The translations under genes were made by a program, and so were the position numbers. This document shows positions 10,141 through 52,389 of a DNA stretch of 64,000 bases, one piece after another. The DNA lies in contig CAXXVS010000002.1 of assembly GCA_963674755.2 (NCBI GenBank), forward strand, positions 768,001 to 832,000. Reading direction: 5' to 3'. Position 1 is the first letter of the stretch. Each line of letters begins with the position of its first letter. The DNA comes from Desulfobacterales bacterium (lineage in GTDB: Bacteria; Desulfobacterota; Desulfobacteria; Desulfobacterales; UBA5852). Under the pieces are notes generated by a model. That model was given only the letters and a program-made list of their open reading frames with translations, ran no database searches and was not told the origin of the DNA.

Positions 10141-10143
10141 GGG

Positions 10144-29703: not shown

Positions 29704-30405
29704 CTAGTCAGGCTCGTTGATGAGCATGGTGGCCGGGTCGAAGCGTACGGCTGTATTGCACCGGAGATTTTCAAACCCCTTGAGGATACAGATGTGGATG
29801 TCCTGGCCCTCCGGCTGCAATTGCACCGCCACCTCGAACAGATCCTGCAGGGATGACAACTGCGGGGGCATACCGTCCGGCAGCGGTGTTTCATGGCGAT
29901 GGGTCCGCACCGTAAACCAGCATCGTACCCCGGTCTCGACGCTCAATTCTTTCAGCTCTTCGAGCTGGCCGCGGATATCGCCTTCAAAGGGCATTCCGTC
30001 CACGATGAGGGTGTGCGGCCGGAAGATACTCTGCTCCATCAAATCGGTCATCCGTTCCCTGAGTTTCGGTACACTGAAGCCTTCCACCTTGAAGGTCATG
30101 ATGAAACGGCGGGGCAGCACGTCGTCCCACAAGGGGGAGGACGCCTTCAAATGACGCTTTTGCGTCAACAGATTAAAAACCTCCTGGTACCACAGGGTGA
30201 CCTTATCCACCGGGTCTTCCAGGCTGACATGCAGAACGTTGCGATCCTGCAGCATGGTATACAGGGCAATCTGAACCAGGAAGGCGGTTTTGCCGATACC
30301 GGCGCGGGCCAGGACTGCTCCGAAAGCGCCGTCCGGCAAACTGTCCTCCGAAGTCAGGCCCAATTGGTGAAGCGGATTTTTTAACAACAGGTCCTTTTTC
30401 ATCAT
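29704..30405 (-). CDS. RecA/KaiC-like P-loop ATPase, function unknown
   Basis: Walker A ARAGIGKT, VLHVSLE, Walker B LIVDG. Confidence 0.75.
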   Translation of the reverse strand: MMKKDLLLKNPLHQLGLTSEDSLPDGAFGAVLARAGIGKTAFLVQIALYTMLQDRNVLHVSLEDPVDKVTLWYQEVFNLLTQKRHLKASSPLWDDVLPRRFIMTFKVEGFSVPKLRERMTDLMEQSIFRPHTLIVDGMPFEGDIRGQLEELKELSVETGVRCWFTVRTHRHETPLPDGMPPQLSSLQDLFEVAVQLQPEGQDIHICILKGFENLRCNTAVRFDPATMLINEPD

Positions 30406-30623
30406 GGTCAGGTTCCTTTTCCTGATGGTGATGAGTCGTCCGCAGGGCCCCCGGGAGGCGGATTCAAGGCAGGGGACCGATGTCGTTCCGACAGGTTGTG
30501 CTCGAACGGGCAAGGGCCGTACAAACGGTGATAGCGTGCCTTTCAACAACCCGTCTCCTTTGAGCGTTGGTAAGAGGTGCGGGGCGCCTGGTCGTGCTCC
30601 CGCGACCGATCAGATCGCTGCCA

Positions 30624-33546: not shown

Positions 33547-33911
33547 GGGTTTCCTTTGCGAAGCAATCAGGGGTATGAGATTATCCTCGGCTCGCCCGCC
33601 GCCCCCTGGGGCAGCCGGGACGCTTCGTGGATGATGCCGCCGGCAGAGTGCTCATTTCATCTACGGTACCCATGGTAACCCCTTGGGCTTGGCTTGGCAA
33701 CGGTTATGACGCGATCGGTGGAACTCTTCCTAAAGTTTGAGGTGCAGGCAACCGAATAGATTTTCTGCCCCCAGATGATGCTTTGGTGCTCCCAGCGAGG
33801 ACGACCGTCGCGCGCCCTGTATTTGGAAGGCAGGCATTGCTTGACTAAGCTACGGTTTTGGGATCAAATAATGCTCATCTCAGTCCGGTATTGATGACTA
33901 AGGAGCCTGGC

Positions 33912-35783
33912 ATGGATATCAATGTTTGTTGTCCCGAAAAAGTGGTCTCGGCCGAAGAGGCCATTGCTAAAATCAAGCGGGGCAGCCGTGTGTTTGTCGG
34001 TACCGGATGCGGTGAACCCCAGCATCTCATTCGGAGTATGGTAAAAAACCCCCAATTACAGGACATCATGCTCTATCAGATGCTGTCTTACACCTTTGCG
34101 GACTACGTGGATGATCCAACCTTCGCGAATCGGTTCAATCTCAAGCTGTTTTTTATCAGCAAAATCATGCGCAAGGCCGCTTTCGAAGGCAAGATCGATT
34201 ATATCCCGGCCTATTTATCCAAGATTCCCCGTCTGTTTGCCAGCCATCGCATCGGTCTGGATGTCGCCTTGGTGCAGGTCAGCCCCCCCGACCATTTCGG
34301 TTATTGCAGTCTGGGCGTTTCCATCGATATTACCCGCTCGGCCATGGAACATGCCCATCTCGTCATTGCCCAAGTCAACCCTTGCATGCCGCGCACCTGG
34401 GGTGACAGTTTCGTGCATGTTGACGAGATCGACTATCTGGTTCCGAAGGACGAGCCTCTGGTCGAAACGATGGTCGATGTCGGGGATAACGAGATATCCA
34501 AGCGTATTGGCCATTTCGTCTCGGAGTTGGTAGAGGACGGCGCCACACTGCAAATCGGGTTCGGCTATTTGCCCAATGCTATTCTGCGCTATCTGGATCA
34601 TAAGCATGATCTCGGCATTCACACTCAGCTCATTACCGACGGTCTCCTGCCGCTTTTTAATAAAGGGGTCATCACCAATAAGAAGAAGACGCTTTTGCCT
34701 GGGAGAGTGGTTGCCTCCCTTTGCATGGGGTCGGAACAACTTTATCAGTTCGTGGACAACAACCCGGCCTTTTATTTCCGATCCTCGGAGTTCGTGAACG
34801 ATCCCACTGTTATTGCCCGTAATGATAACCTCGTTTCCATCAGTAGTGCCCTCGAAGTGGATCTCACCGGACAGGTCTGCTCGGATTCCATGGGCCACCT
34901 CTTTTACAGCGGTATCGGTGATCAGGTTGATTTCTTACGTGGTAGCGCCATGTCCAAAGGAGGGTTCTCCATCATTGCAATGCCCTCCACGGCTTGCAAC
35001 GGCAATGTATCGCGTATCGTTCCCTATCTCAGCGAAGGTTCCGGGGTGGCCACGACACGTGCCGATGTGAATTTCGTTGTTACTGAATACGGTATTGCCG
35101 AACTTCAGGGAAAAAGTATTTTTCAGCGTGTAATGGAACTCACCCAGATTGCCCACCCCAAGTTTCGTGATCAGCTAATCCAGACGGCCAAGGGCCGACA
35201 CTATATTTTCGCCGATCAATTGACGCCTACCCAAGAAGACCTTTTGTTTCTGGAAGGTTACAAATCGACGTTGAAGATTAAAAATGGAAAAACGTTGCAT
35301 TTTCGTCCGTTGCTGCCATCAGATGAATTTGCCTATCGCAATTTCTTCTACTCACTTCAGGAAGAGACTATTTATTACCGTTTCTTTTACCAAATGAAGT
35401 TGTTTTCCCATGAAGTCATCCAGAAGCAATGGGCTAGTGTCGACTACCGAAAAAATATGTCGATGATCGGATTGGTTCAAAGGGGTGGTCATCAGGAGAT
35501 TGTCGCGATCGGCACCTATGCCCAGGAAGACGCTACTAGCGCCGAGGTGGCTTTTGTGGTGCGCGAGGATTTTCAAGGTATGGGAATCGCGTCTTATTTG
35601 CTCAAAATATTGGAGGGGATTGCTAAGGAAAATGACTATGCGCGATTTACTGCAACGGTTTTGCAGGATAACCCGGGCATGTTGTCCGTATTCCGAAAAC
35701 GTTACCCGAAGGCCGAATTGAAAGCCACCGGAGGCAACGAGATCGCTGTCAAAATGGATTTCACACCCAGCGAGGAACCATAA
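33912..35783 (+). CDS. Acetyl-CoA hydrolase/CoA-transferase (4-hydroxybutyrate CoA-transferase-like) fused to a C-terminal GNAT domain
   Basis: DVALVQVSPPD..GYCSLG, DGATLQIG.G, LEVDLTGQV, SGIGDQVDF, VVTEYGIA; C-terminal AEVAFVVREDFQGMGIAS GNAT motif; AAGGAG RBS. Confidence 0.9.
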   Translation: MDINVCCPEKVVSAEEAIAKIKRGSRVFVGTGCGEPQHLIRSMVKNPQLQDIMLYQMLSYTFADYVDDPTFANRFNLKLFFISKIMRKAAFEGKIDYIPAYLSKIPRLFASHRIGLDVALVQVSPPDHFGYCSLGVSIDITRSAMEHAHLVIAQVNPCMPRTWGDSFVHVDEIDYLVPKDEPLVETMVDVGDNEISKRIGHFVSELVEDGATLQIGFGYLPNAILRYLDHKHDLGIHTQLITDGLLPLFNKGVITNKKKTLLPGRVVASLCMGSEQLYQFVDNNPAFYFRSSEFVNDPTVIARNDNLVSISSALEVDLTGQVCSDSMGHLFYSGIGDQVDFLRGSAMSKGGFSIIAMPSTACNGNVSRIVPYLSEGSGVATTRADVNFVVTEYGIAELQGKSIFQRVMELTQIAHPKFRDQLIQTAKGRHYIFADQLTPTQEDLLFLEGYKSTLKIKNGKTLHFRPLLPSDEFAYRNFFYSLQEETIYYRFFYQMKLFSHEVIQKQWASVDYRKNMSMIGLVQRGGHQEIVAIGTYAQEDATSAEVAFVVREDFQGMGIASYLLKILEGIAKENDYARFTATVLQDNPGMLSVFRKRYPKAELKATGGNEIAVKMDFTPSEEP

Positions 35784-36184: not shown

Positions 36185-36589
36185 TTGTCATATACGCTTG
36201 GGCAGAAACAGCTTGATAGTATAGACGAAATCCTTCAGACCGATTTGGTGGATATTGGCGTGCATTGCGTTTTCCTTATCGATATGTCTGGCAATATTAT
36301 TGCCAGTTTAGATGATGGTGAGAATAGACACGATATTTATTCGCTCGCGGCTCTGGCGGCCGGTAACTTTGGTGCGGTGAGCGCGATGGCCAAGATCATC
36401 GGTGAGGGCGAATTTTCATTGCTGTTTCATAAAGGTAAAAAAGAAAATATCCACTTTAGCAAGGTTTTGACCGAATTTTTATTGATTACGCTTTTTGGTA
36501 ATGACCTTTCGCTTGGTTTCTTGCGGTTGAAGGTTGCCGAATCGGTTGAAAAAATAAAAAAGATTTTAGAACCGATTCACACCCCATAA
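36185..36589 (+). CDS. mglB: MglB-type roadblock/LC7 protein (GAP for MglA)
   Basis: VFLIDMSGNII, SLAALAAGNF..VSAMAKIIGEGEF..LFHKG, SLGFLRL resemble MglB; GGAGG then TTG start; directly upstream of mglA. Confidence 0.88.
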   Translation: MSYTLGQKQLDSIDEILQTDLVDIGVHCVFLIDMSGNIIASLDDGENRHDIYSLAALAAGNFGAVSAMAKIIGEGEFSLLFHKGKKENIHFSKVLTEFLLITLFGNDLSLGFLRLKVAESVEKIKKILEPIHTP

Positions 36590-36644
36590 CGCGCCGTTCT
36601 ATATCAATATAAATGACCGACCGCAAACGCTAGGTATAATCTCA

Positions 36645-37250
36645 ATGGCATTCGTCAATCTAAAGAAAAAAGAAGTTCAGGTTAAAATCGTCTATTATGG
36701 TCCCGGTAGAGGCGGAAAAACGACAAATCTTGAGTATATCTATGCAAAGTTCAATGAACGAATTCAGACTGAGATGGTGACCGTCAAGACACATGGTGAC
36801 CGAACGTTGTTCTTTGATTTTTTGCCGATCGATATCGGTAAAATTAATGGATATACCGCTAAGATGCAACTCTATACCGTACCGGGACAGGTCAAATACA
36901 ACGCAACGCGGCGGTTGGTTTTAAGAGGCGTCGATGGAATAGTGTTTGTGGCTGACTCAATGGCGGTGAGAAGAGAAAAGAATATTCTTTCGCTCAAGAA
37001 TCTTCATGAAAACTTAAAAAATTATAAAAAAAGTATTTTTTCCATCCCCTTGGTTTTTCAATACAACAAGGTCGATTTGGCCGAACAGGGGATACCGTTG
37101 CTGCCGTTTGCGACCATGGAAAAAGATCTCAACAGTCAACTCAAACGCCCTGCTTTCGAAGCCAGCGCGGTAACGGGATCAAATGTTGTTCCTACCCTGA
37201 AAAAGATTATTACAATGACCATGGCCTCGATAAAGGACGAATTAAAATAG
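36645..37250 (+). CDS. mglA: MglA-type small Ras-like GTPase
   Basis: KIVYYGPGRGGKTTNL (G1), T..DRTLFFDF (intrinsic Arg), TVPGQ (G3), NKVD (G4), EASA (G5). Confidence 0.95.
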   Translation: MAFVNLKKKEVQVKIVYYGPGRGGKTTNLEYIYAKFNERIQTEMVTVKTHGDRTLFFDFLPIDIGKINGYTAKMQLYTVPGQVKYNATRRLVLRGVDGIVFVADSMAVRREKNILSLKNLHENLKNYKKSIFSIPLVFQYNKVDLAEQGIPLLPFATMEKDLNSQLKRPAFEASAVTGSNVVPTLKKIITMTMASIKDELK

Positions 37251-37260
37251 GAGGATACTG

Positions 37261-37950
37261 TTGAAGAGCGATGCCAAACAAAGCAAAGTAGATAGCGATT
37301 TGGCGGATCGACTTGATACCCTTTTTGATGAAACCGATTCAGATGAGAGTTCCGCCCACAAAAAAGGCCAATCGAATGATCCTCTGGATGAACTCAAGTC
37401 GCTGGTCATGTCGATTGAATGGGAAATTACCGATGAGGTGATGGAGCGCTTCCTATCCCAAATTGATTTCCTTAAAACGCGTTTTGAAGAAGACCGCATT
37501 CTGGTCATGTTCCTTCAGTTGTTGGGCTCGCTTGGGTTGTATATCAAGACGAATAAGGGCAAGGCGCATCCCAACGCTTTCAAACTATTGAATTCCGTGT
37601 ATTCAGGTTTTGAAGATGCCACCTCGCCGGGGAAATTGTCCCCTTCGGAAAAGAAGAAACTGCTTTATGTCGAGCTGAACAAATACAAAGAACTAAAGGA
37701 ACAGATCGAATCAACGCGGAGCCCTGAAAACGAACCGCCGCGAATACCAGAGACGGTTGCCGGACGAGGCAGTGGACAAAAAGCAGCTGCCAATGAAACC
37801 CGTCAAATGGCCAACGTTAGCGAATCAGCACATAGTGGCCTGCTATCCCAAGCACATTTCGATGAAGTTGTAGATGCGATGAAAGCATTGATTTTGAAAG
37901 AACTATCCGGAATACGCGAAGATATAGCACGTTTGGCTAAGTCCAAATAA
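37261..37950 (+). CDS. Hypothetical all-helical protein in the mgl operon
   Basis: AGGAGG then TTG start; acidic N-terminus, helical core (LKSLVMSIEWEITDE...AHPNAFKLL), low-complexity linker, C-terminal amphipathic helix. Confidence 0.8.
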   Translation: MKSDAKQSKVDSDLADRLDTLFDETDSDESSAHKKGQSNDPLDELKSLVMSIEWEITDEVMERFLSQIDFLKTRFEEDRILVMFLQLLGSLGLYIKTNKGKAHPNAFKLLNSVYSGFEDATSPGKLSPSEKKKLLYVELNKYKELKEQIESTRSPENEPPRIPETVAGRGSGQKAAANETRQMANVSESAHSGLLSQAHFDEVVDAMKALILKELSGIREDIARLAKSK

Positions 37951-38058
37951 ACGCATGCGATTTTGTGAGTGTTATAGCGATTAAGTTCATAGACATAGGA
38001 GGAGCTAATAACGACTGGCAATTGCGACGCGATGTTGAAGAATATAGGGAGGTAAACG

Positions 38059-38529
38059 ATGGATTTTGCGTCCGGTGATATTTCTGTGCTCGTTTTCAAA
38101 CCAGTCGTAAGGGACGATGTAGGGAATTTTTCCCTCGATGGCCACATGTTGAGCGTCCTCATGGCGTTGGATGGAGAAAAAACGCTTGGCCAAATTGCCC
38201 AGCAGGCCAACCTAAACATGGCGACGATCAGGGAGGCTGTCAGAAAACTTTTCGAGCTTAAACTGGTCGAAATCATAAAACAAGATATTCAGTTTCTCGA
38301 CCAGGATTTTATATCGTTTTTAATTTCCGAAATGTCGCTCGCCATCGGCCCCCTCGGAGAGGTGATTGTCGAGGATGGTATCGAGGATCTGGGGTATAGC
38401 AAAACCACCTTTCCAACGAACCGCGCGGCCGAGTTAATCAACATGCTGGCGCGAGAAATCCAAAGGGATGAAAAGAGAACCGAATTCAAGCAGAGCATGG
38501 TAAACAAAATTAGAGAAAAAGGCTACTGA
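38059..38529 (+). CDS. Hypothetical protein: winged-helix-like N-terminal domain plus helical IGP-motif domain
   Basis: VLMALDGEKTLGQIAQQANL....REAVRKLFELKLVE wHTH pattern; AIGPLGEVIVED C-terminal module; GGAGG RBS. Confidence 0.78.
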   Translation: MDFASGDISVLVFKPVVRDDVGNFSLDGHMLSVLMALDGEKTLGQIAQQANLNMATIREAVRKLFELKLVEIIKQDIQFLDQDFISFLISEMSLAIGPLGEVIVEDGIEDLGYSKTTFPTNRAAELINMLAREIQRDEKRTEFKQSMVNKIREKGY

Positions 38530-38673
38530 AGAGAATGTATCTAAAATCCGAACTGATAGTACAGGGCACTGACGGTTGTCTGGAAAATGGAGAAACGAAA
38601 TTTATTCCGAGAAATGTAAAAAATGTTCTGCTATGTTGTCGATACAGCGATACCGTAGATAAGGAGTGCGGCT

Positions 38674-40029
38674 ATGATCGTTATTTGTGAAGAGTGCGGA
38701 AAAAAATATAAAATCGACCCCGCGAAAATTAAAGGCGAACAAGCACGATTCAAATGCAAAGCGTGCTCGCATATTATTACCGTAAAAAAGCAAGAACCAG
38801 TTGAACAGAGCGTACCCGAACTGGAACCTGTATTCGAATCCCAACCGGTGCTTGAAGATGTCGACAAAAGTAGTGGTTATCAGGCCGAAGAGACAACGCC
38901 GGACCAAGCCGCGGAGCCGTCAGCACCTTCAACCGCTAAGCGGGTCGCGCGTCGCAAAAAAAAGACGGGCATGGGACTCACCAGCAAGGTCATTCTGTTG
39001 ATGCTTCTGGTCAGCTTGGTGCCGGGCGCGATTTATTTTATCATTTCCTTCAAACAGACCAATGATCGCATCGTGCAAGACACCACGCGTTTTGGTACCC
39101 AAACCACGAATGCCTTGGCCAATGAAGTCAGCGAATGGGTCGATAAGAATGTTCGCGTCCTTAATACTGTGGCTCAGCTGCCAGGTATTCAATCAATGAA
39201 TCGATTCGAGCAAGAGATTCTTCTCAAGGCCGTGCAGAAGGAATACCCCTGGATGTATCTTGTTTTTACGACGGATATCAATGGAATGAATATCGCCCGT
39301 AATGACGACAAGGACCTTAGAGACTATTCCGACCGGCAATATGTTCAAGACATTACCTCCGGCAAGGCACTTGCCTGGCAGAATTTGATCGGGAAAACAT
39401 CTAAACAGCCAGCTTTGGTTATCGCTGTTCCCATTCAAAAAAACGGCCAGACGATCGGTGTAATGGCCGCGGCAATGACACGTGACACCATCAGCAAAAG
39501 AATTGCGAACTGGCGTGAAGGTAAAACCGGATATGCGTTTTTGGTCGATCAAGACGGCAAGGCGTTGGCTCATCCTAAAAAGGCATTTGTCGAGCAGCAG
39601 AAAGATTTAAGCCAGGATCCTCTGGTTAAGGCTGCGCAAGCCCGAAAGAGCGGCCTGATAGAGTTTACCGATGCCGACGGACAGGCCGAAATAGGCTTTG
39701 CCCAGAAAACCCCCCTGGGATGGACACTTGCCATTCAACAATCGAAGGCAGAGGCTTTTGCTCTTCTTAAAGAAGCACAAATATTTGCGCTTATTTTGAT
39801 GGGGGCCACTTTCATCATCGTTGTGGCGATCGCCTATATTGCGAGCCGTGCTATAGTAATGCCCATCCGCAAGTTGACGGATGCCGCGAACCGCATCAGT
39901 GTCGGCGAGTTAGGGGTTGAAATAAAAACGACGTCGAAGGATGAAATCGGTGATTTGGCGGAAGCTATTACGCGCATGCAGGATAGTATCCGCTTGTCCA
40001 TTGAAAGGCTTAGACGTCGTCGAAGGTGA
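38674..40029 (+). CDS. Zinc-ribbon - TM - dCache - TM - HAMP membrane receptor lacking kinase/MCP/cyclase output
   Basis: CEEC...CKAC zinc ribbon; TM1 VILLMLLVSLVPGAIYFIISF; Cache motifs YSDRQYV and GYAFLVDQDG.ALAHP; TM2; HAMP PIRKLTDAANRISVGEL...DEIGDLAEAITRM then stop. Confidence 0.85.
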   Translation: MIVICEECGKKYKIDPAKIKGEQARFKCKACSHIITVKKQEPVEQSVPELEPVFESQPVLEDVDKSSGYQAEETTPDQAAEPSAPSTAKRVARRKKKTGMGLTSKVILLMLLVSLVPGAIYFIISFKQTNDRIVQDTTRFGTQTTNALANEVSEWVDKNVRVLNTVAQLPGIQSMNRFEQEILLKAVQKEYPWMYLVFTTDINGMNIARNDDKDLRDYSDRQYVQDITSGKALAWQNLIGKTSKQPALVIAVPIQKNGQTIGVMAAAMTRDTISKRIANWREGKTGYAFLVDQDGKALAHPKKAFVEQQKDLSQDPLVKAAQARKSGLIEFTDADGQAEIGFAQKTPLGWTLAIQQSKAEAFALLKEAQIFALILMGATFIIVVAIAYIASRAIVMPIRKLTDAANRISVGELGVEIKTTSKDEIGDLAEAITRMQDSIRLSIERLRRRRR

Positions 40030-40126
40030 CGTTATCGGTCGATTACGGGATACTCATGAAACCCAGCCCAATTTATAAAATACAATCAGGCTGGGAAACG
40101 ACCCCACCAATTGGAAAGTGTAGTTA

Positions 40127-41128
40127 ATGATTGTAATACCTAAAGAGAACCCTGTTATCGCTAACTTAAACAGTTACTATGTTCAGGTTGATCGGCTTAT
40201 CGAGCACTTTCAAGGCGAAGTCGGGTGCGGTTGCTTGCATTTTCACTCACTATCGTCGGAAGGGATTTTGTTTTTTGATAAAGACGAAGTCCTCAACGGA
40301 CTATTTTTACAGAAGAAAGGAACAATATCAGGTAAGCCAGCTATTGACGCCCTAATCAAATCGTCTGCAGAAACCAATTATGCTTTAAACGTCTATATTC
40401 TACGGTCAGAAGATATCTACTTCTGGTCGACGATTCCGGAGGCTAAGAGAATTTATCAGGACCTTACCACGGAATTTACCGATCTAGAAGGTTTGATAAA
40501 AAAAATGACCTCCGAAGGGCTAACCGGGTTTATTGAAGTGGTTATTAAGGAAAACAATGGGGGCGGGCTCGTTTTTTTTAACAATGGCGGTATTTCCGGT
40601 GGCTCCTATTCATGGGGCAGAGGTGATAGTACCAGGGGAAAAGCTGACCATGACAGACTAATCCAATTAACCAAGGACTATGGCGGTGCTTTTCATGTGA
40701 GCCGTATATCGATGACCGGAAACGATAAGCCTCTTGAAGAAGACGTTGATCTGGAACCAGAAGAACTTAGTGAAAAGCCTTCCAGCAGGATTGTAACCGC
40801 AATGGGAGAAATGATTGCCATATTTGAACGCACTGTCAAATCTATGAAAAATGTGAATTCTGATTTTGCAACTATGTTAAATCGCAAATTTGTTGAGAAA
40901 GCAGATCGTTATCCTTTTCTAGATCCTTTTGCCGCCGAGTTCAAATATGCAAACGAGGAAATTGTTTTTGATGGTGTTACAACCGACGAGGAATTGACGA
41001 GAGGCATCCTGGAGTCTATTGCCGAACTATCCGTTGAGTTAAACGTCTCGCAACAATTCAAAAATAACCTCATCACATGGATGAAGAAATATAAGGAAGA
41101 GGTCCAAACCTACGGCATTAGCTTTTAA
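40127..41128 (+). CDS. Hypothetical protein with two tandem DUF4388/PATAN-like (DUF2226-like) domains
   Basis: Repeat 1 GCLHF...EGILFFDKDEVLNG; repeat 2 LTGFIEV...GLVFFNNGGISGG; C-terminal FLDPFAAEF helical domain. Confidence 0.7.
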   Translation: MIVIPKENPVIANLNSYYVQVDRLIEHFQGEVGCGCLHFHSLSSEGILFFDKDEVLNGLFLQKKGTISGKPAIDALIKSSAETNYALNVYILRSEDIYFWSTIPEAKRIYQDLTTEFTDLEGLIKKMTSEGLTGFIEVVIKENNGGGLVFFNNGGISGGSYSWGRGDSTRGKADHDRLIQLTKDYGGAFHVSRISMTGNDKPLEEDVDLEPEELSEKPSSRIVTAMGEMIAIFERTVKSMKNVNSDFATMLNRKFVEKADRYPFLDPFAAEFKYANEEIVFDGVTTDEELTRGILESIAELSVELNVSQQFKNNLITWMKKYKEEVQTYGISF

Positions 41129-41412
41129 TCGTCAGTCCAAAATCAGCTGTCTTTCGCTTCTTCATTGATATCCGAAATCCATAAAAGGGTTTTGGACCTC
41201 ATCCTTACAGAAGCCAATTATGATTCTGTTAAATGCTGAGGAAGGGGGCCGGAATGACCGGCTTAAAAAGTCTACAACCTTTTTACGGCAGTTTCCTTTC
41301 CAGTGGTTTGAAACGCTTCATCAATAAGGGAGTGCCTAAAAGGAATTGGCTCTATTTGCGACGTTTATGAGAATGGATGCTTCTCTCAGCTTACGCCAAG
41401 TGCTAGGACGCC

Positions 41413-42444
41413 ATGGACAAGACGGCATTTTCTAAAATAGATGCTTCCCTGAGAAGCTACGCGGAATTCGTAAGGAATTTACCGGTTGCCGTATATCGGA
41501 CCACACTTGAAGGCAGAATCGCATTTTGCAACGACCCCTTTGCACGTATTTTCGGTTTCGACTCGGTAAACGATGTCATCGGTTTTCCAGAAATTAAACT
41601 TTACCGCAACAAAAAGGACCGGGGAACTCTGGTGCAATCCGTCATGCAGCGCGGAATCATCAGCGAAATGCCAGTTGCTTTTACAAAACGCGACCACATG
41701 CCCATTTGGTGCGCCGTAACGACTAAAGCCACCATCGATGACGATGGTGAAGTGGCCTTTTTAGATGGACTTGTCAGAGATATTACTGGAGAAATTGAAG
41801 AAACGCAGCGTCATGATAACGGCATTGATCATATAAACGCGATCAATGTCCCGGCGTTCATTTTCGACGCACAAGGAATTGTTCTGGACGCGAATAAATC
41901 CGGAGCACAAATTCTTGGATGCCCTGCAAGCAATTTAAAAGGGAAATCCTTCGCTGATTATCTAACCAACGATGACCAACAGCTATTTTTCCTTTTTTTA
42001 GGTGATACAATCCGTATCGGCGGGGAAGAAATTATCCTTCAAATACCAGTCGATAGGAAAGAAAGGAAATATGTACGACTACATGCCGCTGTTGTAAAAT
42101 CGGATGGTGGCACGAGACAGATCAATTGCATCGTGAATGATGTTACCGAGCGTATAAAAACGATCCGCGAAAAGACTAACAGGGATAAATTTCAGGGCGT
42201 TCTCGAAATGGCTGGGGGTGTGGCCCATCGCATTAACCAGCCTTTGACCATCGTTAATAACATAATTAACGAAGCCTTCACAGGGCTTACGGCCGAAGAT
42301 CATCTTTATGATAGCCTTGTTAAAATGCGCACTCAAATACAGAAGCTGAATGAGATTACTAAAAAAGTCGGTAGTATAAAAAAGTATGAAGCGATCGATT
42401 ATGTCGCCGGGGTCAAAATTGTCGATATCGATAAGGCTTCTTAA
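41413..42444 (+). CDS. PAS-PAS-HisKA protein lacking the HATPase domain
   Basis: Two PAS domains (GRIAFCNDPFARIFGF; GIVLDANKSGAQILG, each ending in DIT/DVT); H-box MAGGVAHRINQPL; stops about 70 aa later with no N/G boxes. Confidence 0.82.
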   Translation: MDKTAFSKIDASLRSYAEFVRNLPVAVYRTTLEGRIAFCNDPFARIFGFDSVNDVIGFPEIKLYRNKKDRGTLVQSVMQRGIISEMPVAFTKRDHMPIWCAVTTKATIDDDGEVAFLDGLVRDITGEIEETQRHDNGIDHINAINVPAFIFDAQGIVLDANKSGAQILGCPASNLKGKSFADYLTNDDQQLFFLFLGDTIRIGGEEIILQIPVDRKERKYVRLHAAVVKSDGGTRQINCIVNDVTERIKTIREKTNRDKFQGVLEMAGGVAHRINQPLTIVNNIINEAFTGLTAEDHLYDSLVKMRTQIQKLNEITKKVGSIKKYEAIDYVAGVKIVDIDKAS

Positions 42445-42464
42445 AACAATTTAAGGTGAAATTA

Positions 42465-43487
42465 ATGATACGCAGTGTCCTTTTTGTAGATGACGACAGG
42501 GAAATGCTGCAGGCCCTGAAAGAGGGCCTGGAGAAGTATCGCGAAACTTTCAGTGTCGTATTGGCCGAGGACGGCACGGATGCGGTTGGCAAGCTTAAAA
42601 ACAACAAAATTTCGCTTGTCGTAACGGATCTAAAGATGCCGAACATGGACGGCTTTAGCCTGCTTGCCCACGTTATGGAAAAATATCCCGATATCCCTGT
42701 AATTATTATTACAGGGTACAGTACGTCAGAAATGAAAAGGCTGGCGCAAGAGGGAGGGGCCGTAGGCTATATCAGCAAGCCTTTTCTTATTGAAGACCTT
42801 GCCAAGCAAATTATGAAAACCTTACGGAAAGAGTCTGACGGTGGCACGTTGCACGGCGTATCCTCAGGCATGTTTCTGCAGTTGATGGAAATGGAAGAGC
42901 GAACCTGTACGATTCGCCTGACTGATCGCACAAGTCAAAAATCCGGCGTATTGTTTTTTCGCGATGGAACTCTTTTAGATGCACGGGCTGGTGACATGCA
43001 GGGTTTAGATGCCGCCTATGTTATTTTCAGCTGGGAAGAAGTGACCCTGTCCATACAGAATGAATGTCTGCAAAAGGATAATAAGATTAACTCCGACCTG
43101 CAACCGATCATCTTGGAAGCAATGCGGTTGAAGGATGAAGCCGAAGATGATGAGAATGAATTGGGCATAGATGAGACGATTGAAGAAATCGAGATTGTTG
43201 ACGCTGAGGAATCATTCGTTGACAAAGTAAAAGGGCTTTTAAACAAGAATGTTGGCGATCGCTGCGGGCTTGAAGATATTTACCAAGATAACAGTATGCA
43301 AAAAGTCGTCAATGCCGTTGCAGAACTGGGACCGATTTTCCAAATTGGTATGTTTAAAATTGGCTACCTTGATCATGGTGCCAATACCGACACCATCGTT
43401 TTGAACGGGAATCCGGCGACGACTATAAGCGTCAACCCGAAATGCCCTCGCGATAAAATTATTCAAGTGTTGAATGACGCCTTATAG
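42465..43487 (+). CDS. Response regulator: REC + DUF4388 (PATAN-like) + C-terminal domain
   Basis: VLFVDDD, LVVTDLKMP (phosphoacceptor Asp), ITG, ISKPF; G.L.GVS...FLQLMEMEERTC.....GVLFFRDG.L.DA DUF4388 pattern. Confidence 0.88.
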   Translation: MIRSVLFVDDDREMLQALKEGLEKYRETFSVVLAEDGTDAVGKLKNNKISLVVTDLKMPNMDGFSLLAHVMEKYPDIPVIIITGYSTSEMKRLAQEGGAVGYISKPFLIEDLAKQIMKTLRKESDGGTLHGVSSGMFLQLMEMEERTCTIRLTDRTSQKSGVLFFRDGTLLDARAGDMQGLDAAYVIFSWEEVTLSIQNECLQKDNKINSDLQPIILEAMRLKDEAEDDENELGIDETIEEIEIVDAEESFVDKVKGLLNKNVGDRCGLEDIYQDNSMQKVVNAVAELGPIFQIGMFKIGYLDHGANTDTIVLNGNPATTISVNPKCPRDKIIQVLNDAL

Positions 43488-43547
43488 ACCGAACATTGCG
43501 AATCGAAAATGGTGGTTTCGTCTATGATCTAGTAAAAAAGGGCTAAT

Positions 43548-43895
43548 ATGGAAGCGCATTTCAAAGATATTATGGCGATTAAAGGTGTTCAGGGTGTCAT
43601 TTTACTGGATGCCGACGGAAAGGTTGTTTTTGAGTCTGTGCCCTCTTTGCGAACGGAAATGAGACAACGCTATACGAACTGGAAAAAGCTCATCGATACG
43701 CTTGGAAACATACGGGAAGCCGATTTTGTATTTGATAACGGAAGAGTGTATCTACGACAGAGCGAAAATGGCTACTTGATTATCAGCATGCAATCGTTCG
43801 CTTCCATTGCGATGGTAAAGTTAAACTGCGATATTTTGCTTCCTCAGTTAAAATACGACAAGAGCAAAGGCTTGAAGGCTCTCTTTCGAAGATAA
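43548..43895 (+). CDS. Second roadblock/LC7-like protein
   Basis: IMAIKGVQGVILLDADGKVV...FVFDNGRVYL...GYLII......ASIAMVKL roadblock pattern. Confidence 0.72.
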   Translation: MEAHFKDIMAIKGVQGVILLDADGKVVFESVPSLRTEMRQRYTNWKKLIDTLGNIREADFVFDNGRVYLRQSENGYLIISMQSFASIAMVKLNCDILLPQLKYDKSKGLKALFRR

Positions 43896-44031
43896 TGATT
43901 GTTATTACAATGAATTTAGCCGGATAACATTGCAGAACATATTCGATGTATTTTCGATAATGAGTTGATGATAGTTACTATTGCCAGTGACGCATCAAAT
44001 TGCACTGGTCTTCAATTGTTGAGAGTGAAAA

Positions 44032-46413
44032 ATGCCTAAAGCGGAACAGTCCATAAAATCTGATACGAATGCTAAAATCAATGAAGCGGAAGTATGCTTC
44101 TCGATGGGGCTTCTTGATGAGGCATTAGCGATATTTAATAAAGTCCTTCAGGAAGCTGCTGATCTTGATGAAAACAACAGAGAAAAAATTGTTGCCAAGG
44201 TTGCGGAAATTAGTAAGCAAATCGAAGAACAGAAAAACGATGAGGCCGTGAGCGTTTCAACTGAAGAAATATCGATGTTGAAAAAGTCGCTATCCGGTGA
44301 GGAAGATGCAACCGCAATAATAGATAGCGCATCGGCTTTCAAGGATTTGGGACTCTATGAAGAAGCATTGTCGGAGTACGAAAAACTGCTTGTTTTAGAA
44401 AAACCGACGGAAAAAGTTGTCCCGGACATTGTTGACTGCCTTCTGAAATTATTTTCACCTAACGATTTATTCGATAAAATTCTTAAGATCGTGGGCGACC
44501 AGAGATTGGAGGCGGAAAAACGGGGAATTGCCAAATACTATTTTGGCCTTGAAATGGAAAAGCGTGACTATCGCGACTTAGGGTTAGACCTCTATGAAGA
44601 AGCAGAAAAAGATATTCCGGATGACCCTGAGCTACAGAAACGAATAGAAACGCTACGATCCCGGCTATCTAGTGGATCCAAGTATGATTTCCTTTTGCGT
44701 CAGCAGATGGTCACAACTGAACAACTTCAAAAAGCGGCTTCGCTTTCCAAACAGACGCGTAAAAGTGTCGAAGCGGTTCTGATTGAAAATTTTGGAATTA
44801 AAAAGGAAGATATCGGAAAATCCTTTGCTCAATTTTACGGCTGCACCTTTCACCCTTATGCGGAAGATTTGGTAACACCATACGAGCTTTTAGGAAATCT
44901 GAAAAAAGCCTTTCTGCTACATGAACTCTGGGTGCCGCTGAATTGGGGCAAAGATGGCGTCGAGGTGCTCGTAGACGATCCGCGTGATCTAAACAAGACC
45001 GATAACATCAAGGCCTTGATGAAAACCGGTAAAATCAACTTCTGTGTTGCGATCAGAGAAGACATAGAAGCTTATATCAAGCGGTTTTATTCAACTGATC
45101 AGTATAGCGATATGGGGCAGGGGGGGGAAGCCCTCGACAATTTCGACGACATCCTAGATGTGTCTTTTGAAGAAGAGGACGAGGTCGACGAAGCGATTGA
45201 CGAGCTTGATGAAAGCTCTAGCAAAGTCGTCAAGCTTGTTGATCAATGCCTCATTGCGGCCTATCGCAAAAATGCATCCGACATCCATATTGAGCCCTCA
45301 CCCCAAACCAAATCGACAAATATTCGGTTTAGAATGGACGGCGTCTGCCAGGATTATATCAAAGTTCCCAATTCGCTTGCCAGAGGTCTTCTGAGTCGAA
45401 TCAAAATTATGTCGAATCTTGATATCGCCGAGCGGCGATTGCCGCAAGATGGCAAAATTAAATTTAAAAGAAAGGGCATTCCGCCTTTTGAACTCCGTGT
45501 GGCTACCCTTCCAACCGCAGGCGGCTATGAGGACGCGGTTTTGCGAATTCTAGCTACGGCCGGAGCTATGAAACTTGAAGATATGGGTTTGGAAGACCGC
45601 AATTATAAAGTTCTCACCAGCGCCATCGCCAAACCATACGGTCTTGTATTGTGCGTGGGTCCCACCGGTTCCGGTAAAACAACCACTCTGCACGCCGCCT
45701 TAGGGCATATCAACAAACCCGGAGTTAAAATATGGACCGCTGAAGACCCCGTAGAAATTACACAACTCGGGTTGCGGCAAGTTGAAGCCAAACCGAAAAT
45801 CGGGTTGGATTTTGCGAGAATTATGCGCGCGTTCCTGCGTGCCGACCCCGATGTGATCATGATCGGTGAGATGCGTGACGAGGAAACCGCCTCCATCGGT
45901 GTAGAAGCTTCCCTTACCGGGCATCTCGTATTTTCAACCCTTCATACGAACAGCGCCCCTGAAACGGTTACACGGCTGCTCGACATGGGGCTCAACCCGC
46001 TCAACTTTTCAGATGCTTTCCTGGGGGTGTTGGCCCAAAGGCTTGTTCGGCGACTTTGTACATGTAAAAAAGAATATCATCCCACCAAGGATGAGTTCGA
46101 ACAAATTGTGGAAGACTACGGATCCGCTTATTTCCCGAAATCGGGCATTGAGTACAGCGAAGACCTCACGATCTATCGCGCGGGGAGCTGTGAGAAATGT
46201 TCCGGAACCGGATACAAAGGACGCATGGGAATCCATGAATTGATGGATGGCAGTAAAACCATCAAAAGACTCATCAAACAGGCCGCTCCCACAGACCAAC
46301 TTTTTGAACAAGCCATCGAGGAAGGCATGTCTACCTTGAAACAGGACGGCATCCATAAGGCCTTCAGAGGCATTACTGATTTGGTGGAGGTGAGACGCGT
46401 GTGCATCAGTTAG
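44032..46413 (+). CDS. PilB/GspE-family secretion/pilus assembly ATPase with N-terminal TPR-like region
   Basis: ASDIHIEP, LDIAERRLPQDG, GPTGSGKTTT, EDPVE, LRADPDVIMIGEMRD, TGHLVFSTLHTN, Cys motif LCTC...CEKC; N-terminal AEVCFSMGLLDEAL and ASAFKDLGLYEEALSEYEK TPR-like repeats. Confidence 0.93.
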   Translation: MPKAEQSIKSDTNAKINEAEVCFSMGLLDEALAIFNKVLQEAADLDENNREKIVAKVAEISKQIEEQKNDEAVSVSTEEISMLKKSLSGEEDATAIIDSASAFKDLGLYEEALSEYEKLLVLEKPTEKVVPDIVDCLLKLFSPNDLFDKILKIVGDQRLEAEKRGIAKYYFGLEMEKRDYRDLGLDLYEEAEKDIPDDPELQKRIETLRSRLSSGSKYDFLLRQQMVTTEQLQKAASLSKQTRKSVEAVLIENFGIKKEDIGKSFAQFYGCTFHPYAEDLVTPYELLGNLKKAFLLHELWVPLNWGKDGVEVLVDDPRDLNKTDNIKALMKTGKINFCVAIREDIEAYIKRFYSTDQYSDMGQGGEALDNFDDILDVSFEEEDEVDEAIDELDESSSKVVKLVDQCLIAAYRKNASDIHIEPSPQTKSTNIRFRMDGVCQDYIKVPNSLARGLLSRIKIMSNLDIAERRLPQDGKIKFKRKGIPPFELRVATLPTAGGYEDAVLRILATAGAMKLEDMGLEDRNYKVLTSAIAKPYGLVLCVGPTGSGKTTTLHAALGHINKPGVKIWTAEDPVEITQLGLRQVEAKPKIGLDFARIMRAFLRADPDVIMIGEMRDEETASIGVEASLTGHLVFSTLHTNSAPETVTRLLDMGLNPLNFSDAFLGVLAQRLVRRLCTCKKEYHPTKDEFEQIVEDYGSAYFPKSGIEYSEDLTIYRAGSCEKCSGTGYKGRMGIHELMDGSKTIKRLIKQAAPTDQLFEQAIEEGMSTLKQDGIHKAFRGITDLVEVRRVCIS

Positions 46414-46439: not shown

Positions 46440-46490
46440 AACGGCGAAGGTCTTCGGCACTATCATCAAACCCTTCGCCGTTTATTATTT
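46440..46490 (+). terminator. Intrinsic terminator-like hairpin closing the mgl-ATPase cluster
   Basis: AACGGCGAAGG...CCTTCGCCGTT stem followed by TATTATTT. Confidence 0.6.
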
Positions 46491-48353: not shown

Positions 48354-48920
48354 TCAAAGGGATCGTTTGGAGGGCGCCGATCGCCGGATCTCATTGGCGT
48401 GCTCAAAAGCCATAATCGTTTTCAGGCCGGCATCATCAATACCCGGTACGGCGATGACCGGTCTTATACGCCGTGTCCAGCGTTTGAAGATGCCTGCACT
48501 GCCTTGCGTTTCGACCTCCAAAATCCCCAGCAACGTATAGGCGGATCTTGCGGCGCCGAGCAACTTCAGGATATCGGGAGAGCAGCGCAACGCATTGATA
48601 AACAAGTCAAGTTCATTACGGGTCCATCGCGGGCTGAAGACAAGCTGGCTCATTTTTCCGAAATAGCCCCTTAACAGCCAATGCCTGGCGCGGCGATTGT
48701 TCAACAACGCCACGGCCGAAAAGGCTGTTTGCACGGTGTCATCTTCAACGACCTGTCGGTTGTAGCTCAGATAGCGCAGATTCTGCGTTTCTTCCGGCAT
48801 GCCGCTGATGATAAGAATTTCCTTGAGAGAAGCCCCATCAGGTGTGAAGACACGATGAACCGCTTGGAGGAGATCGTCTATGAAATTCGCACCCATAGTA
48901 GTAAAAAATTCCTCCTGCAA
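48354..48920 (-). CDS. Hypothetical protein
   Basis: 188-aa ORF co-oriented with the upstream phosphoesterase; no recognised motif. Confidence 0.55.
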   Translation of the reverse strand: MQEEFFTTMGANFIDDLLQAVHRVFTPDGASLKEILIISGMPEETQNLRYLSYNRQVVEDDTVQTAFSAVALLNNRRARHWLLRGYFGKMSQLVFSPRWTRNELDLFINALRCSPDILKLLGAARSAYTLLGILEVETQGSAGIFKRWTRRIRPVIAVPGIDDAGLKTIMAFEHANEIRRSAPSKRSL

Positions 48921-48968: not shown

Positions 48969-49469
48969 TTAAAAATGAATATGACGATATGCAAAACGGT
49001 CACCTACGATTTCGATCTGCGCCATGCTGGGCTTATGCCCATCCCGCGGGAAGGAAGGGCTTCCGGGGTTTAGGTAGAGCACCCCATTTTGTTGCACCGC
49101 GGCCGGGCGATGGGTATGGCCGCTGATGACAATGCGAACATCGGCACTCGCCGGGTCGATGCTGATCCTATGCAAGTCATGAATCACATAGATGAGGATA
49201 TCACCCGCCTCCACAAATTCTTCATAAGGCAGCCCTTGCGACCATTGGCCCAAGTCCATGTTGCCACGAACGGCCTTGACCTTATCGGGTTTGCCAAGAG
49301 CTTGCAGGATCTCCGGTCTGTCAATGTCACCGGCGTGGAGAACAAGATCCATATGGCATAGACAATCCATCACGTTAGGGGCAAGCCGGCCGTGCGTATC
49401 GGATAGCACGCCGATGGTCAGCGGAGAGGGGCGGCCACTAGGATCGGCGTGGTGGTCTTTAAGGCGCAT
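48969..49469 (-). CDS. Metallophosphoesterase (YfcE/Vps29-like)
   Basis: SDTHG, HAGD, VRGNMD, SGHTH, NPGS motifs. Confidence 0.92.
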   Translation of the reverse strand: MRLKDHHADPSGRPSPLTIGVLSDTHGRLAPNVMDCLCHMDLVLHAGDIDRPEILQALGKPDKVKAVRGNMDLGQWSQGLPYEEFVEAGDILIYVIHDLHRISIDPASADVRIVISGHTHRPAAVQQNGVLYLNPGSPSFPRDGHKPSMAQIEIVGDRFAYRHIHF

Positions 49470-50574
49470 GGTAGAGATTATCGGCAAAAACAAGCAGCAA
49501 CCCGCTTAAGTGCGGGGGCATGCTGTTAAATTCAATCCCAACCGCCTGGGAATCGCGGCCCTCATTGGAGATGGTTTGCGACCAAACAATCGTGCCCTTT
49601 ATGCTCAAAGCCATGACATCGTTCGGCGGCCCCATCAAAATGTTGACCGTTTTCCCGATCAGCAAGTGGGATGGTGGTGATTGGGAACTCTCTTCAAGGA
49701 CGAGACAGGCACCACCGATGGACAGGTCCCGGGTAACCCCATAGAGGTCGGCCATCGGCGTTATGCCATCATCCTCAAACACTTTTAGTGAAATCTGCAC
49801 CGGGATAGTGTGCCGACGCATTTTCCGCTCGACAAACGGGGCGGGCGCCAATTTGCGGCAGTTTTCAAACAATTCCCTGACAGCGGTTCCTACCGAAGGA
49901 AACGCCTTACTGATTTCCAACAGATTTTCGCGCCCTATCTTGGCCAATTCCACCCGGGTCGCTGTTTCCGTATAGGATTGCGAATAGCGCTCTTTATCGA
50001 GAGGGCACACATCACCAAAGACCTCTTCTGCGATGTTTTCAATGATAGGATTCTGATCCTCATCGCTACGAACGGAAGGGTAGATACGGCGATGGAGCCT
50101 ACCGGAAACCACCATGAAAAGGGTGTTTTCGGGGTCCCCGAATTTTTTAACCATTTTCCCCGCCGGCAGAACGATGCGTTCCAGGCGGGTCACCACCGCA
50201 ATAAATTCCCGGAATGAAAGCCCGGCAAAGAACATGTTTAACGGTGTTGAGCGTGGGTTGTTTTCGATGAGGCTATGATAGAACGTCTTGATGGACTTGA
50301 AGGAAGGTTTAACGATTTGCCATTGAAGCATTTTGGCGACAACCGCCTGGAGGACGTGCCCCGATTCCACGAATAGACCGGCGGCTTTTTTAAAATATTC
50401 AGCGGCGGCGGAGGACTTGCGTTTGACCAATAAATCGGCCAAAGCGCGGTGGAGATGCGGGTTGCCCGGAAAAATCTTCAGCATGCTCTGGAATTCACCG
50501 ATCGAATCAATGGTGATTGAGCCGTCGATAATTTGCTTCACGATGCTGCTTTGCATTTTAACGGGTTCGGTCAT
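49459..50574 (-). CDS. cNMP-binding-like + PilZ domain protein
   Basis: FGDPENTLFMVVSGRL...FGD cNMP-fold pattern; ERKMRR (RxxxR) and RDLSIGG (DxSxxG) PilZ motifs; GIEF. Confidence 0.8.
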   Translation of the reverse strand: MTEPVKMQSSIVKQIIDGSITIDSIGEFQSMLKIFPGNPHLHRALADLLVKRKSSAAAEYFKKAAGLFVESGHVLQAVVAKMLQWQIVKPSFKSIKTFYHSLIENNPRSTPLNMFFAGLSFREFIAVVTRLERIVLPAGKMVKKFGDPENTLFMVVSGRLHRRIYPSVRSDEDQNPIIENIAEEVFGDVCPLDKERYSQSYTETATRVELAKIGRENLLEISKAFPSVGTAVRELFENCRKLAPAPFVERKMRRHTIPVQISLKVFEDDGITPMADLYGVTRDLSIGGACLVLEESSQSPPSHLLIGKTVNILMGPPNDVMALSIKGTIVWSQTISNEGRDSQAVGIEFNSMPPHLSGLLLVFADNLYHAP

Positions 50575-51435: not shown

Positions 51436-52389
51436 TCAGGCGGATGTCGAACGTAACGGTTTCGGGCGAGGGGAGCATCCAATGGTCGTCAGCTTGACGA
51501 GTGCCCAGAGGGTGAACAACGGGATGAGGATGGTCTGGAGGATAAATACGACCATCAGGCGAACGGTATCTTTCGTGAAGTGCTCCAACTTAGCACTCAG
51601 ATGGTCGATTTTTTGGCGAAGATCGAACCACTTCTGGGTTTCGGTCAGCCAGCGGCGCACTCCGGCTAATTTGCCGGTTGTTGACGGTGCCGTCTCATTG
51701 GTGGCGGTGGGATCCACCTGTTTGAGCTCGTCATTGATGTGCGTGAGGGTCTGGGTCGCTTCCTCATATTGAATGTTCAGAAAGCGGTCATAAATCGTTT
51801 CACTGGCCAGGGCCACGGCTGGGATCAGCAGCCGTACCACGATCGCCAGTAACACCAGACGCGCGCCCAACGCGTGTAGATCGACGGCGCCCCAAAACCG
51901 TTTCCAGACGGATACGGCCAACAGGAGCATACCGGCGGACAGAACCACCTGCAACCCCAGCCAATCGCTCATTTCCATCAGAATGCGTTGAATCCCCAGA
52001 GAGGTCGTGCTGACGAGCATGACCCACGAAAAGCGTTCGGCAAGATCGTTGATCGGGTCCAATATTTCCCCGACTGACAATGTCAGTCCGATACCGGCGG
52101 GCGAAACCGCAACTTCCGTACCCTGGATCACAGAAATCATGCCGTTGAGTCCCCTGACCATGGCAAAGGTATAAGCTGCCCTGGCCATGGTTTTTTCAAC
52201 ATAGGATTCTGCACGCCGGTCCAGTCGGACGAGCGGTGTTTTTGTCAAAAGGACACCCAATGTCGAGCTGCCGGCCAAAATCGCCACAACAAGCCAGATC
52301 AGAGTGGCGGCGCCTTTACGCTGTAAGGGGGATAATTTTCGCAATGCTGGAAGGCCTTTCGATAAATGAGGCCGCGTCTTGGCAGCCAT
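51436..52389 (-). CDS. Hypothetical multi-pass membrane protein; start uncertain
   Basis: Several TM segments; RGLNGMISVIQGTE...GEILDPINDLAERFSWVML block. Confidence 0.7.
   Translation of the reverse strand: MAAKTRPHLSKGLPALRKLSPLQRKGAATLIWLVVAILAGSSTLGVLLTKTPLVRLDRRAESYVEKTMARAAYTFAMVRGLNGMISVIQGTEVAVSPAGIGLTLSVGEILDPINDLAERFSWVMLVSTTSLGIQRILMEMSDWLGLQVVLSAGMLLLAVSVWKRFWGAVDLHALGARLVLLAIVVRLLIPAVALASETIYDRFLNIQYEEATQTLTHINDELKQVDPTATNETAPSTTGKLAGVRRWLTETQKWFDLRQKIDHLSAKLEHFTKDTVRLMVVFILQTILIPLFTLWALVKLTTIGCSPRPKPLRSTSA

Follow-up and report, generated by a model that had tools for sequence, protein, structure and literature searches.

In its GTP-bound form, the small GTPase MglA binds tetratricopeptide repeat (TPR) proteins that act on the ATPase PilB or on pili, according to the available portions of several studies (PMC7519303; PMC7668184; PMC3983030). 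In Bdellovibrio, MglA binds the approximately 350-aa TPR protein Bd2492 in a 1:1 ratio (PMC3983030); its gene belongs to the tamAB operon, which is separate from mglA, and the protein carries no ATPase fusion. SgmX of Myxococcus xanthus is a separate protein of 14 TPRs encoded elsewhere, and the accessible text of PMC11580455 reports that no direct SgmX–PilB contact was detected. Here we analyzed a cluster of ten genes at 36185–46413 of a 64-kb stretch of a Desulfobacterales genome (contig CAXXVS010000002.1, positions 768,001–832,000; hereafter the window). Similar to the MglA/MglB–SgmX–PilB system of M. xanthus, this cluster combines a Group 1 MglA and MglB with a TPR module as the putative MglA-GTP effector and with a PilB-type ATPase as the presumed output, and the likeness of its TPR to SgmX is by module type and presumed role. 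Different from SgmX, the TPR module comprises only about 200 aa, is fused to the ATPase, and is encoded together with mglBA.

The ten open reading frames (ORFs) are all co-oriented on the + strand, as the initial annotation had stated, and follow the order mglB, mglA, CheA-P1-like scaffold gene, winged helix-turn-helix (wHTH) gene, receptor gene, tandem-PATAN gene, PAS-DHp gene, REC-PATAN gene, second roadblock gene, and TPR-ATPase gene. The tandem-PATAN profile matches 67 of the 201 genomes of the order, and 40 of these places, spread over families, were fetched together with 26 mglA-orthologue and 14 paralogue loci. Fifty-nine loci contained the tandem-PATAN gene, of which seven at contig ends were dropped and 52 were counted. 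All 52 encode the P1-like protein and MglA; because 18 of them had been anchored on mglA itself, the other 34 count as independent for this gene, and each of these 34 holds it. The other genes were found in 51 (mglB and REC-PATAN), 50 (second roadblock), 49 (wHTH protein and receptor), 44 (TPR-ATPase, including two short forms in G113 and G114), and 23 loci (PAS-DHp), with some of the misses representing split or short ORFs (the receptor in G099 and the PAS gene in G009). All ten genes are present at 17 loci and the nine without the PAS gene at 37, and two further loci found with the wHTH protein as query, which stand outside these counts, contain all ten in order. The acetyl-CoA hydrolase gene and rsmG, which flank the cluster and served for comparison, are kept at 17 and 20 of the 52 loci, respectively. 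The proposed co-conservation of the genes is thus supported by this survey, in which the gene order is kept across many Desulfobacterales families.

Smaller loci reveal which of these genes stay together. Twenty loci of the order that encode the fused TPR-ATPase were selected for having no tandem-PATAN gene nearby; mglA lies in the same run in 13 of them and immediately precedes the ATPase gene in four (G038, G103, G152, and G167). Among these reduced loci, a search of G201 recovered mglB and the P1-like gene but not mglA; G050 stops at a contig edge. Outside the order, 12 loci with the fusion were fetched, ten with mglA, one without, and one cut; these ten comprise six bare operons of mglB, mglA, the P1-like gene and the TPR-ATPase gene, one locus with mglA adjacent to the ATPase gene, and three rearranged full clusters. 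Overall, mglA directly precedes the ATPase gene in five genomes, and this adjacency occurs at four separate places of an MglA FastTree phylogeny (83 of 125 rows, 42 order-level rows having been thinned out). When the P1-like gene was used as the anchor, 18 of 20 loci (two from the same order) had mglA in the run. The lasting core of the cluster is therefore mglB–mglA–CheA-P1-like scaffold–TPR-PilB, with receptor, wHTH, PAS, and PATAN genes gained or lost between loci.

The first core gene, mglB (36185–36589, +), encodes a 134-aa roadblock protein (Robl_LC7, E 3e-7) from a TTG start preceded by GGAGG. Its score against the NCBIfam MglB model is 52 bits, below the cut-off of 200, and it is the one MglB-type gene of the genome according to a local profile. 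From its family membership, MglB is likely the GTPase-activating protein of MglA. The product of mglA (36645–37250, +; 201 aa), which has a match in 39 of 41 related genomes, has intact G1–G5 motifs with a TVPGQ G3, an NKxD G4, and an intrinsic arginine finger, R53, adjoining the G2 threonine T54. An arginine next to this threonine is a Group 1 MglA criterion in the available part of PMC4316618. R53 is kept in 102 and Q82 in 107 of 108 sequences. The last gene (44032–46413, +) encodes a 793-aa protein in which domain profiles and PDB matches identify a TPR domain (about residues 8–212), a degenerate MshEN domain, and a PilB-type ATPase (T2SSE). A profile of the fused TPR matches 92 of the 201 genomes of the order and 35 of 301 genomes across the phylum; judged by ORF length, the fusion itself is present in 79 of the 201, 55 of which also hold the tandem-PATAN gene.

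A complex of MglA with GTP and Mg and of the TPR domain (residues 8–212, from which the TPR profile was also built) was modeled using 27-row alignments of each partner paired by neighborhood. The model scored 0.73, whereas the best of three controls scored 0.00. Of 157 solved complexes, 116 attain this mark, as do 2 of 215 mismatched pairs; these counts hold only roughly because our alignments were own-built and the ligand was included. The runs shared at least 64% of contacts, and the partner had a predicted local distance difference test (pLDDT) value of at least 80. In the model, the interface spans ATPase residues 14–106, with the strongest contacts between the first TPR (17–30) and MglA R22, 106–109, and 145–151; R22, which is kept in 116 of 122 MglAs, and an insertion at 148–151 both sit in this interface. 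Weaker contacts touch R53 and 87–96, which are switch regions, and dependence on GTP is therefore plausible. Interface columns of the TPR are more conserved than the rest both in fused TPRs (0.51 vs. 0.43; equaled by 53 of 2000 random sets) and in free-standing ones (0.51 vs. 0.36; 0 of 2000), a check that is not independent of the alignments fed to the model. Taken together, MglA-GTP probably binds the TPR of the ATPase. The link from MglA to a PilB-type ATPase that the initial annotation had proposed is the best-lasting part of the cluster, and the model supports it. It also suggests that the switch may act on the motor directly, not via a separate adaptor as in myxobacteria.

The same association recurs at other loci. 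A free-standing homologue of the TPR is encoded directly upstream of a second mglA of this genome (C2:983787), an arrangement shared by 10 of 14 paralogue loci, and the four paralogue loci with no free TPR fall outside the TPR-linked mglA clade (14 rows, support 99). The TPR domain is thus a recurring companion of MglA. This TPR-linked paralogue retains 20 of 29 interface residues (59% overall). A third, TPR-less MglA retains 9 of 29 (38% overall) and has neither R22 nor the 148–151 insertion. The second locus (L121:1797–5190; G000:C2:983796–987189) consists of TPR, mglA, DUF4388/cyclic nucleotide-binding, and PilZ genes with neither mglB nor ATPase, resembling the MglB-less Bdellovibrio arrangement. 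Its layout was also observed in two genomes outside the order, and the DUF4388/cyclic nucleotide-binding neighbor suggests a cyclic-nucleotide input to the second MglA. The third, divergent mglA (L115; G000:C2:1728998–1740238) is located among several REC-domain genes, two genes before a REC-fused PilB-like ATPase gene, and represents a second, independent mglA–ATPase neighborhood. A further free TPR homologue (L124:3758–4519; G000:C3:500757–501518) adjoins a histidine kinase and a sigma-54 regulator.

Between mglA and the accessory genes lies the remaining core gene (37261–37950, +), which directly follows mglA in 26 of 26 mglA-orthologue loci. Its 229-aa product had been described as a helical scaffold; the gene is real and constant, but the CheA-P1 (histidine phosphotransfer, Hpt) fold lacking a phospho-histidine had been missed. 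The AlphaFold2 model is a confident five-helix bundle (fold residues 41–153), and a fold comparison with 48,161 chains put CheA P1 domains or P1-derived designs in its top six places (Z 10.1–12.1, root-mean-square deviation 2.8–3.4, 109–115 residues aligned). No acceptor histidine was found on helix B, where at most 2 of 90 homologues have one at any column from 58 to 74; a histidine at position 103, which the aligned ranges place at the start of helix D, is present in 73 of 90. The profile matches 47 of 301 genomes across the phylum. The family comprises 1167 clusters at 50% identity with one to three strong domain copies per protein, often in tandem, and many homologues are 600–1350 aa long with repeated copies. 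No Pfam family exceeded its cut-off in the 24 homologues scanned, and no fusion to MglA, TPR, or ATPase was identified among the best 150 representatives. Fusions to CheW occur in G393 and G296. Five of the four-gene operons face a cluster of one shared layout (HDOD, CheB, CheB, PATAN-REC-CheB, REC, and CheA in G280), and in the present genome a CheA is encoded together with PATAN-REC-CheB at C2:2048–2054 kb. FimL and the ChpA Hpt-like repeats of Pseudomonas are likewise Hpt-like proteins with no acceptor histidine, linked to type IV pili in the available text of PMC3019171. The P1-like protein shares with them this lack of an acceptor histidine and the frequent tandem arrangement. It differs in having no match to the FimL Pfam families (an Atlas lead scored 0.76) and in its position directly after mglA, which is not known for FimL. 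The modeled fold would fit a FimL-like pseudo-Hpt protein linking MglA to a chemosensory kinase.

From these data, we somewhat favor the reading that the product of the cluster is a motor for type IV pilus extension gated by MglA. In its GTP form, MglA would dock on the TPR domain at the N-terminus of the PilB-type ATPase, and this binding may place or license the ATPase at a pilus or secretion machine whose genes lie outside the cluster, with MglB switching MglA off. The result would be the Myxococcus MglA–SgmX–PilB relay in which a single polypeptide combines adaptor and motor. It must act in trans because the cluster encodes no platform, pilin, or secretin. TPR input may have taken the place of cyclic di-GMP (c-di-GMP) control, since the c-di-GMP-binding RLG motif of MshEN is observed in 0 of 65 orthologues and KYD or RYD stands in its place. 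The P1-fold protein would serve as a non-phosphorylated scaffold tying MglA/MglB to receiver or chemosensory proteins, and the PATAN proteins, second roadblock, wHTH piece, Cache receptor, and PAS-DHp protein would be accessory inputs. A broader proposal, that this is a polarity or motility switch of Desulfobacterota in which the GTPase binds the motor via the fused TPR and the CheA-P1-derived scaffold ties the GTPase to chemosensory input, is tentative and stands slightly short of an even chance.

Besides the approximate calibration, several observations weigh against this account. Solved complexes of small GTPases with TPR proteins exist and may raise the model score. MglA structures are present in the PDB, and the 60 listed of 100 PDB matches of the TPR profile are all generic TPRs; the model may thus pass by likeness to some other GTPase–TPR pair. 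The ATPase gene is absent from 8 of the 52 loci, and the fused TPR-ATPase has no mglA nearby at 5 of 20 order-level loci and 1 of 12 outside the order. Free TPRs with no mglA nearby were found at 3 of 8 loci and at C3:500757 in this genome. The loci were chosen by us, and no statistical test is given because kin are not independent. As for the scaffold, its likeness to P1 is structural alone, and a Z below 13 between helical bundles can reflect an arrangement that is common. Its profile has no match to PDB sequences, to Pfam, or to the Hpt of the genome's own CheA. Regarding the motor, the fusion and an orphan GAF-ATPase form a long-branch clade apart from all machinery-linked ATPases (support 100; quick tree). 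The occurrence of PilC/GspF (five matches in this genome) has no discriminating power on the machine served, because 199 of the 201 genomes of the order have one.

Alternatively, MglA could bind the TPR-ATPase while the latter acts as a regulatory subunit, either assisting in the manner of TfpB or competing with canonical PilB, or serves a purpose other than piliation, for example polar positioning. Consistent with this alternative are the long-branch clade, the lost MshEN motif, and the lack of pilC, pilin, or secretin genes beside the TPR-ATPase gene in the window or among the scanned neighbors. Moreover, each machinery locus of the genome already has an ATPase: we identified four such loci with their own ATPases, in addition to a lone pilB near pilY1, pilT/pilU-type genes, and the REC-ATPase gene by the third mglA. 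The TPR-ATPase scores below the equivalog cut-offs of both TIGR02538 (PilB; 497 vs. 676 bits) and TIGR02533 (GspE; 462 vs. 630 bits), and at 21 bits against NF053729 (cut-off 38). However, the PilB/GspE catalytic motifs and the tetracysteine zinc site are present in 64–65 of 65 full-length orthologues (Walker A 64, Asp box 65, Walker B 64, His box 64, and CxxC pairs 65), and the closest solved relatives, PilB structures 3jc8 and 5tsg, are extension ATPases. We consider a regulatory or non-pilus role unlikely; given MglA–TPR binding, pilus extension is the output we would expect with fair confidence. The ATPase, which had been called dedicated, nevertheless has no machine of its own. The orphan GAF-MshEN-ATPase (L113:2950–5268; G000:C2:894949–897267), the nearest paralogue of the TPR-ATPase at 49% identity, is followed by a GAF/PAS hybrid kinase, which points to a possible subfamily of sensor-fused PilB-like ATPases.

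The initial annotation had placed the control of MglA elsewhere, in a self-contained GPCR-like circuit in which a ligand of the Cache receptor and a PAS-HisKA/REC phosphorelay set the nucleotide state of MglA and thereby switch the ATPase. The receptor (38674–40029, +) comprises a cytoplasmic Zn-ribbon, a dCache_1 domain between two transmembrane helices (102–127 and 367–398), and HAMP, as identified by profiles. It has no output domain, ending within four residues of the HAMP profile end in 57 of 60 cases with a conserved arginine-rich tail, and its Cache-type sensor domain varies between families. The PAS-PAS-DHp protein (41413–42444, +), assigned by domain profiles and alignment and ending in a HisKA-like hairpin, carries H272 in 27 of 27 sequences, followed by R, S, K, or Q and never by E or D, and 69–84 residues separate its H-box NQP motif from the C-terminus. 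The REC-PATAN(DUF4388) response regulator (42456–43487, +), with a PATAN match over the cut-off and a further, unassigned domain of about 90 aa, has an intact receiver site (D58 in 62 and K108 in 65 of 66). Such conserved phosphorelay residues, the presence of the receptor in 49 of the 52 loci with its constant tail, and a true hybrid kinase in the run of three reduced loci (G086, G121, and G187) would all suit a receptor-driven circuit. Against it, no HATPase domain was found in any of the ten cluster proteins, so that the cluster has no kinase and the phosphoryl group of REC must come from an outside kinase, possibly a chemosensory one. In addition, the PAS-DHp gene is present at fewer than half of the loci, all six four-gene operons and most of the reduced loci lack the receptor, and the wHTH gene paired with a HAMP-protein gene occurs twice more in the genome with no mglA. 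None of the analyses tied the receptor to MglA. As reduced operons of relatives dispense with the receptor, wHTH, and PAS genes, the receptor circuit lies outside the core, and we regard this explanation as improbable. The domain calls of the initial annotation hold overall, except that its PAS-HisKA protein is no kinase; with neither a kinase catalytic domain nor PilC, pilin, or secretin, the cluster is not self-contained.

The wHTH protein (38059–38529, +; 156 aa), with a weak wHTH match below the cut-off and a helical domain, is probably a detached tail of a PATAN protein and not a transcription factor or CvnC, because DUF4388-wHTH-helical fusions occur in six distant genomes (G250, G374, G345, G315, G224, and G483). 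Its C-terminal domain has no match to that of the tandem-PATAN protein, and Atlas gave no usable match. Its two paralogues in this genome each precede a HAMP membrane protein (L122:1058–4393 and L123:1058–3141), with no mglA, and one of these two pairs is followed by two phosphonate-type binding proteins; the pair is a mobile output-less receptor module. The tandem-PATAN (DUF4388-like) protein (40127–41128, +; 333 aa) has a helical C-terminal domain and two repeats, assigned by hhalign to the PATAN profile (92% and 95%; internal repeat 99%) and modeled as two alike alpha/beta units. No Pfam match was found on this copy, weak ones were found in 6 of 19 orthologues, and a Pfam match was found in the G345 homologue; a fold search against the PDB gave a best Z of 6.5 and no clear match. 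The second, divergent roadblock protein (43548–43895, +; 115 aa; hhalign to MglB 87%, E 4e-6) is encoded directly after the REC-PATAN gene, and a REC-DUF4388-Roadblock fusion is present in G393. The C-terminal domain of REC-PATAN was considered as a further roadblock and rejected (hhalign 5% and 0.4%). In Synechocystis, PATAN binds the N-terminal domain of PilB1, and DUF4388-GspE_N fusions and MglA/MglB near PATAN genes are on record in the available part of the same study (10.1101/2021.06.11.447907); by this analogy, the PATAN domains here may also contact the PilB N-terminus. The cluster has REC together with PATAN/DUF4388 in common with the cyanobacterial PatA-type regulators, and differs from them in its REC-PATAN order and extra domain, its tandem PATAN protein, and the GTPase in the same cluster. 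Additional variants include reduced loci with an mglB-mglA-mglB-P1-like run followed by an FHA-domain gene (L047:6134–6622, L048:7892–8392, and L051:5267–5752), a TPR-Ser/Thr kinase gene after the P1-like gene (L140), and a multiheme cytochrome c gene 3′ of the Cache-HAMP receptor gene in rearranged clusters outside the order (L141:10476–10985, Pfam-checked; L169:11995–12504), hinting at redox sensing in the latter.

A comparison with the actinobacterial conservons (AGPS) had also been drawn, and both cluster types do combine a membrane sensor, a roadblock protein, a wHTH-like gene, and a small GTPase. According to the available text of PMC4316618 and PMC13343842, conservons combine DUF742 and a CvnA kinase with a Group 2 MglA, which has GTPGQ and lacks the arginine finger. 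In contrast, the present cluster has a Group 1 MglA and no CvnA-type kinase with an ATPase domain, its receptor ending after HAMP. No match to CvnC (DUF742, PF05331) was found in the 97% complete genome, and control genomes likewise had none over the cut-off. The comparison is therefore not supported.

Intergenic gaps within the cluster are, in gene order, 55, 10, 108, 144, 97, 284, 11, 60, and 136 bp, and internal promoters are therefore possible at the several junctions exceeding 100 bp. This spacing, and the fact that parts of the cluster are shuffled or lost separately and each is also found alone, would agree with an old, loosely coupled motility regulation island of co-regulated genes with no direct MglA–ATPase contact. 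Such an island would not be expected to keep mglA and the TPR together through repeated reduction and duplication, or to yield a complex model that passes while its controls score 0.00, and we consider it the least probable of the explanations weighed here. Promoter-like sites were at chance level (18 found vs. 22.6 expected). Neither one RNA run (0.15 of words present) nor 28 short RNA contig pieces (43% diverging from the stretch; 0 of 8 listed bridging two genes) was informative on co-transcription. The hairpin said to close the cluster exists (46440–46482, +; 11-bp stem, 21-nt loop, then an A/T run; single copy in the genome), but is a weak terminator candidate (z −2.4; 4 of 200 shuffled sequences fold equally well) that the terminator scan did not list, and the co-oriented rsmG begins 75 bp 3′ of the last stop codon. 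Hairpins 3′ of orthologous pilB genes vary from −9 to −37 kcal/mol (16 loci, without shuffle control); a conserved terminator was rejected, as hairpins of similar strength are not constant there. The GC content of the cluster (0.447) is among the lowest 2.3% of 1338 windows. At 13 of 13 orthologous loci, however, the flanking DNA is richer in GC than the cluster, and members of the family share synteny in these flanks; low GC is thus an old trait, and recent horizontal transfer was rejected.

Other genes of the window were also annotated. An acetyl-CoA hydrolase/transferase-GNAT fusion (33858–35783, +) adjoins the cluster upstream; this is the flanking gene counted above. A cyclic nucleotide-binding and PilZ protein is encoded 3 kb downstream (49459–50574, −), where several family members have a same-strand ORF of equal length. 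A GYF_2-AIM24 fusion was identified at 62595–63599 (−); GYF_2 is recurrent in myxobacterial motility proteins. ORFs of 188–355 aa at 29704–30549 (−), 9835–11187 (+), 48354–48920 (−), and 51436–52503 (−) have no Pfam match at E 1e-5, the first containing a P-loop-like GxGKT stretch.

Parts of this neighborhood have been noted before. In the available text of PMC4316618, Group 1 MglA neighborhoods are called variable and neither a P1-like gene nor a TPR-ATPase is mentioned; Table S2 places a PATAN gene close to mglA/mglB in Desulfatibacillum (Dalk_2485) and gives PATAN-mglA for Desulfococcus (Dole_2371), the rows consulted recording MglA, MglB, and PATAN alone. In the literature searched, which covered few subscription papers, no description of the cluster, of a TPR-PilB fusion with MglA, or of the P1-like neighbor was found. 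The MglA/MglB–PATAN neighborhood is thus already known, and the ten-gene cluster is apparently undescribed.

For Myxococcus, the available text of PMC11580455 describes as open the mechanism by which PilB is activated by MglA-GTP and its TPR effector. A TPR-PilB fusion that occurs in nature alongside mglBA offers a two-protein system for reconstituting PilB activation, with interface residues named. If the proposed binding is true, it would represent a direct GTPase-to-PilB contact of a kind absent from the searched literature, and the fusion would show how the SgmX-to-PilB step may work. The P1-like proteins would constitute an unannotated pseudo-Hpt family joining MglA signaling to chemosensory proteins. 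The genome contains dsrA over the profile cut-off, and its host is therefore a sulfate reducer, as first annotated; small-GTPase control of pili would thereby be extended to the dominant sulfate reducers of sediments.

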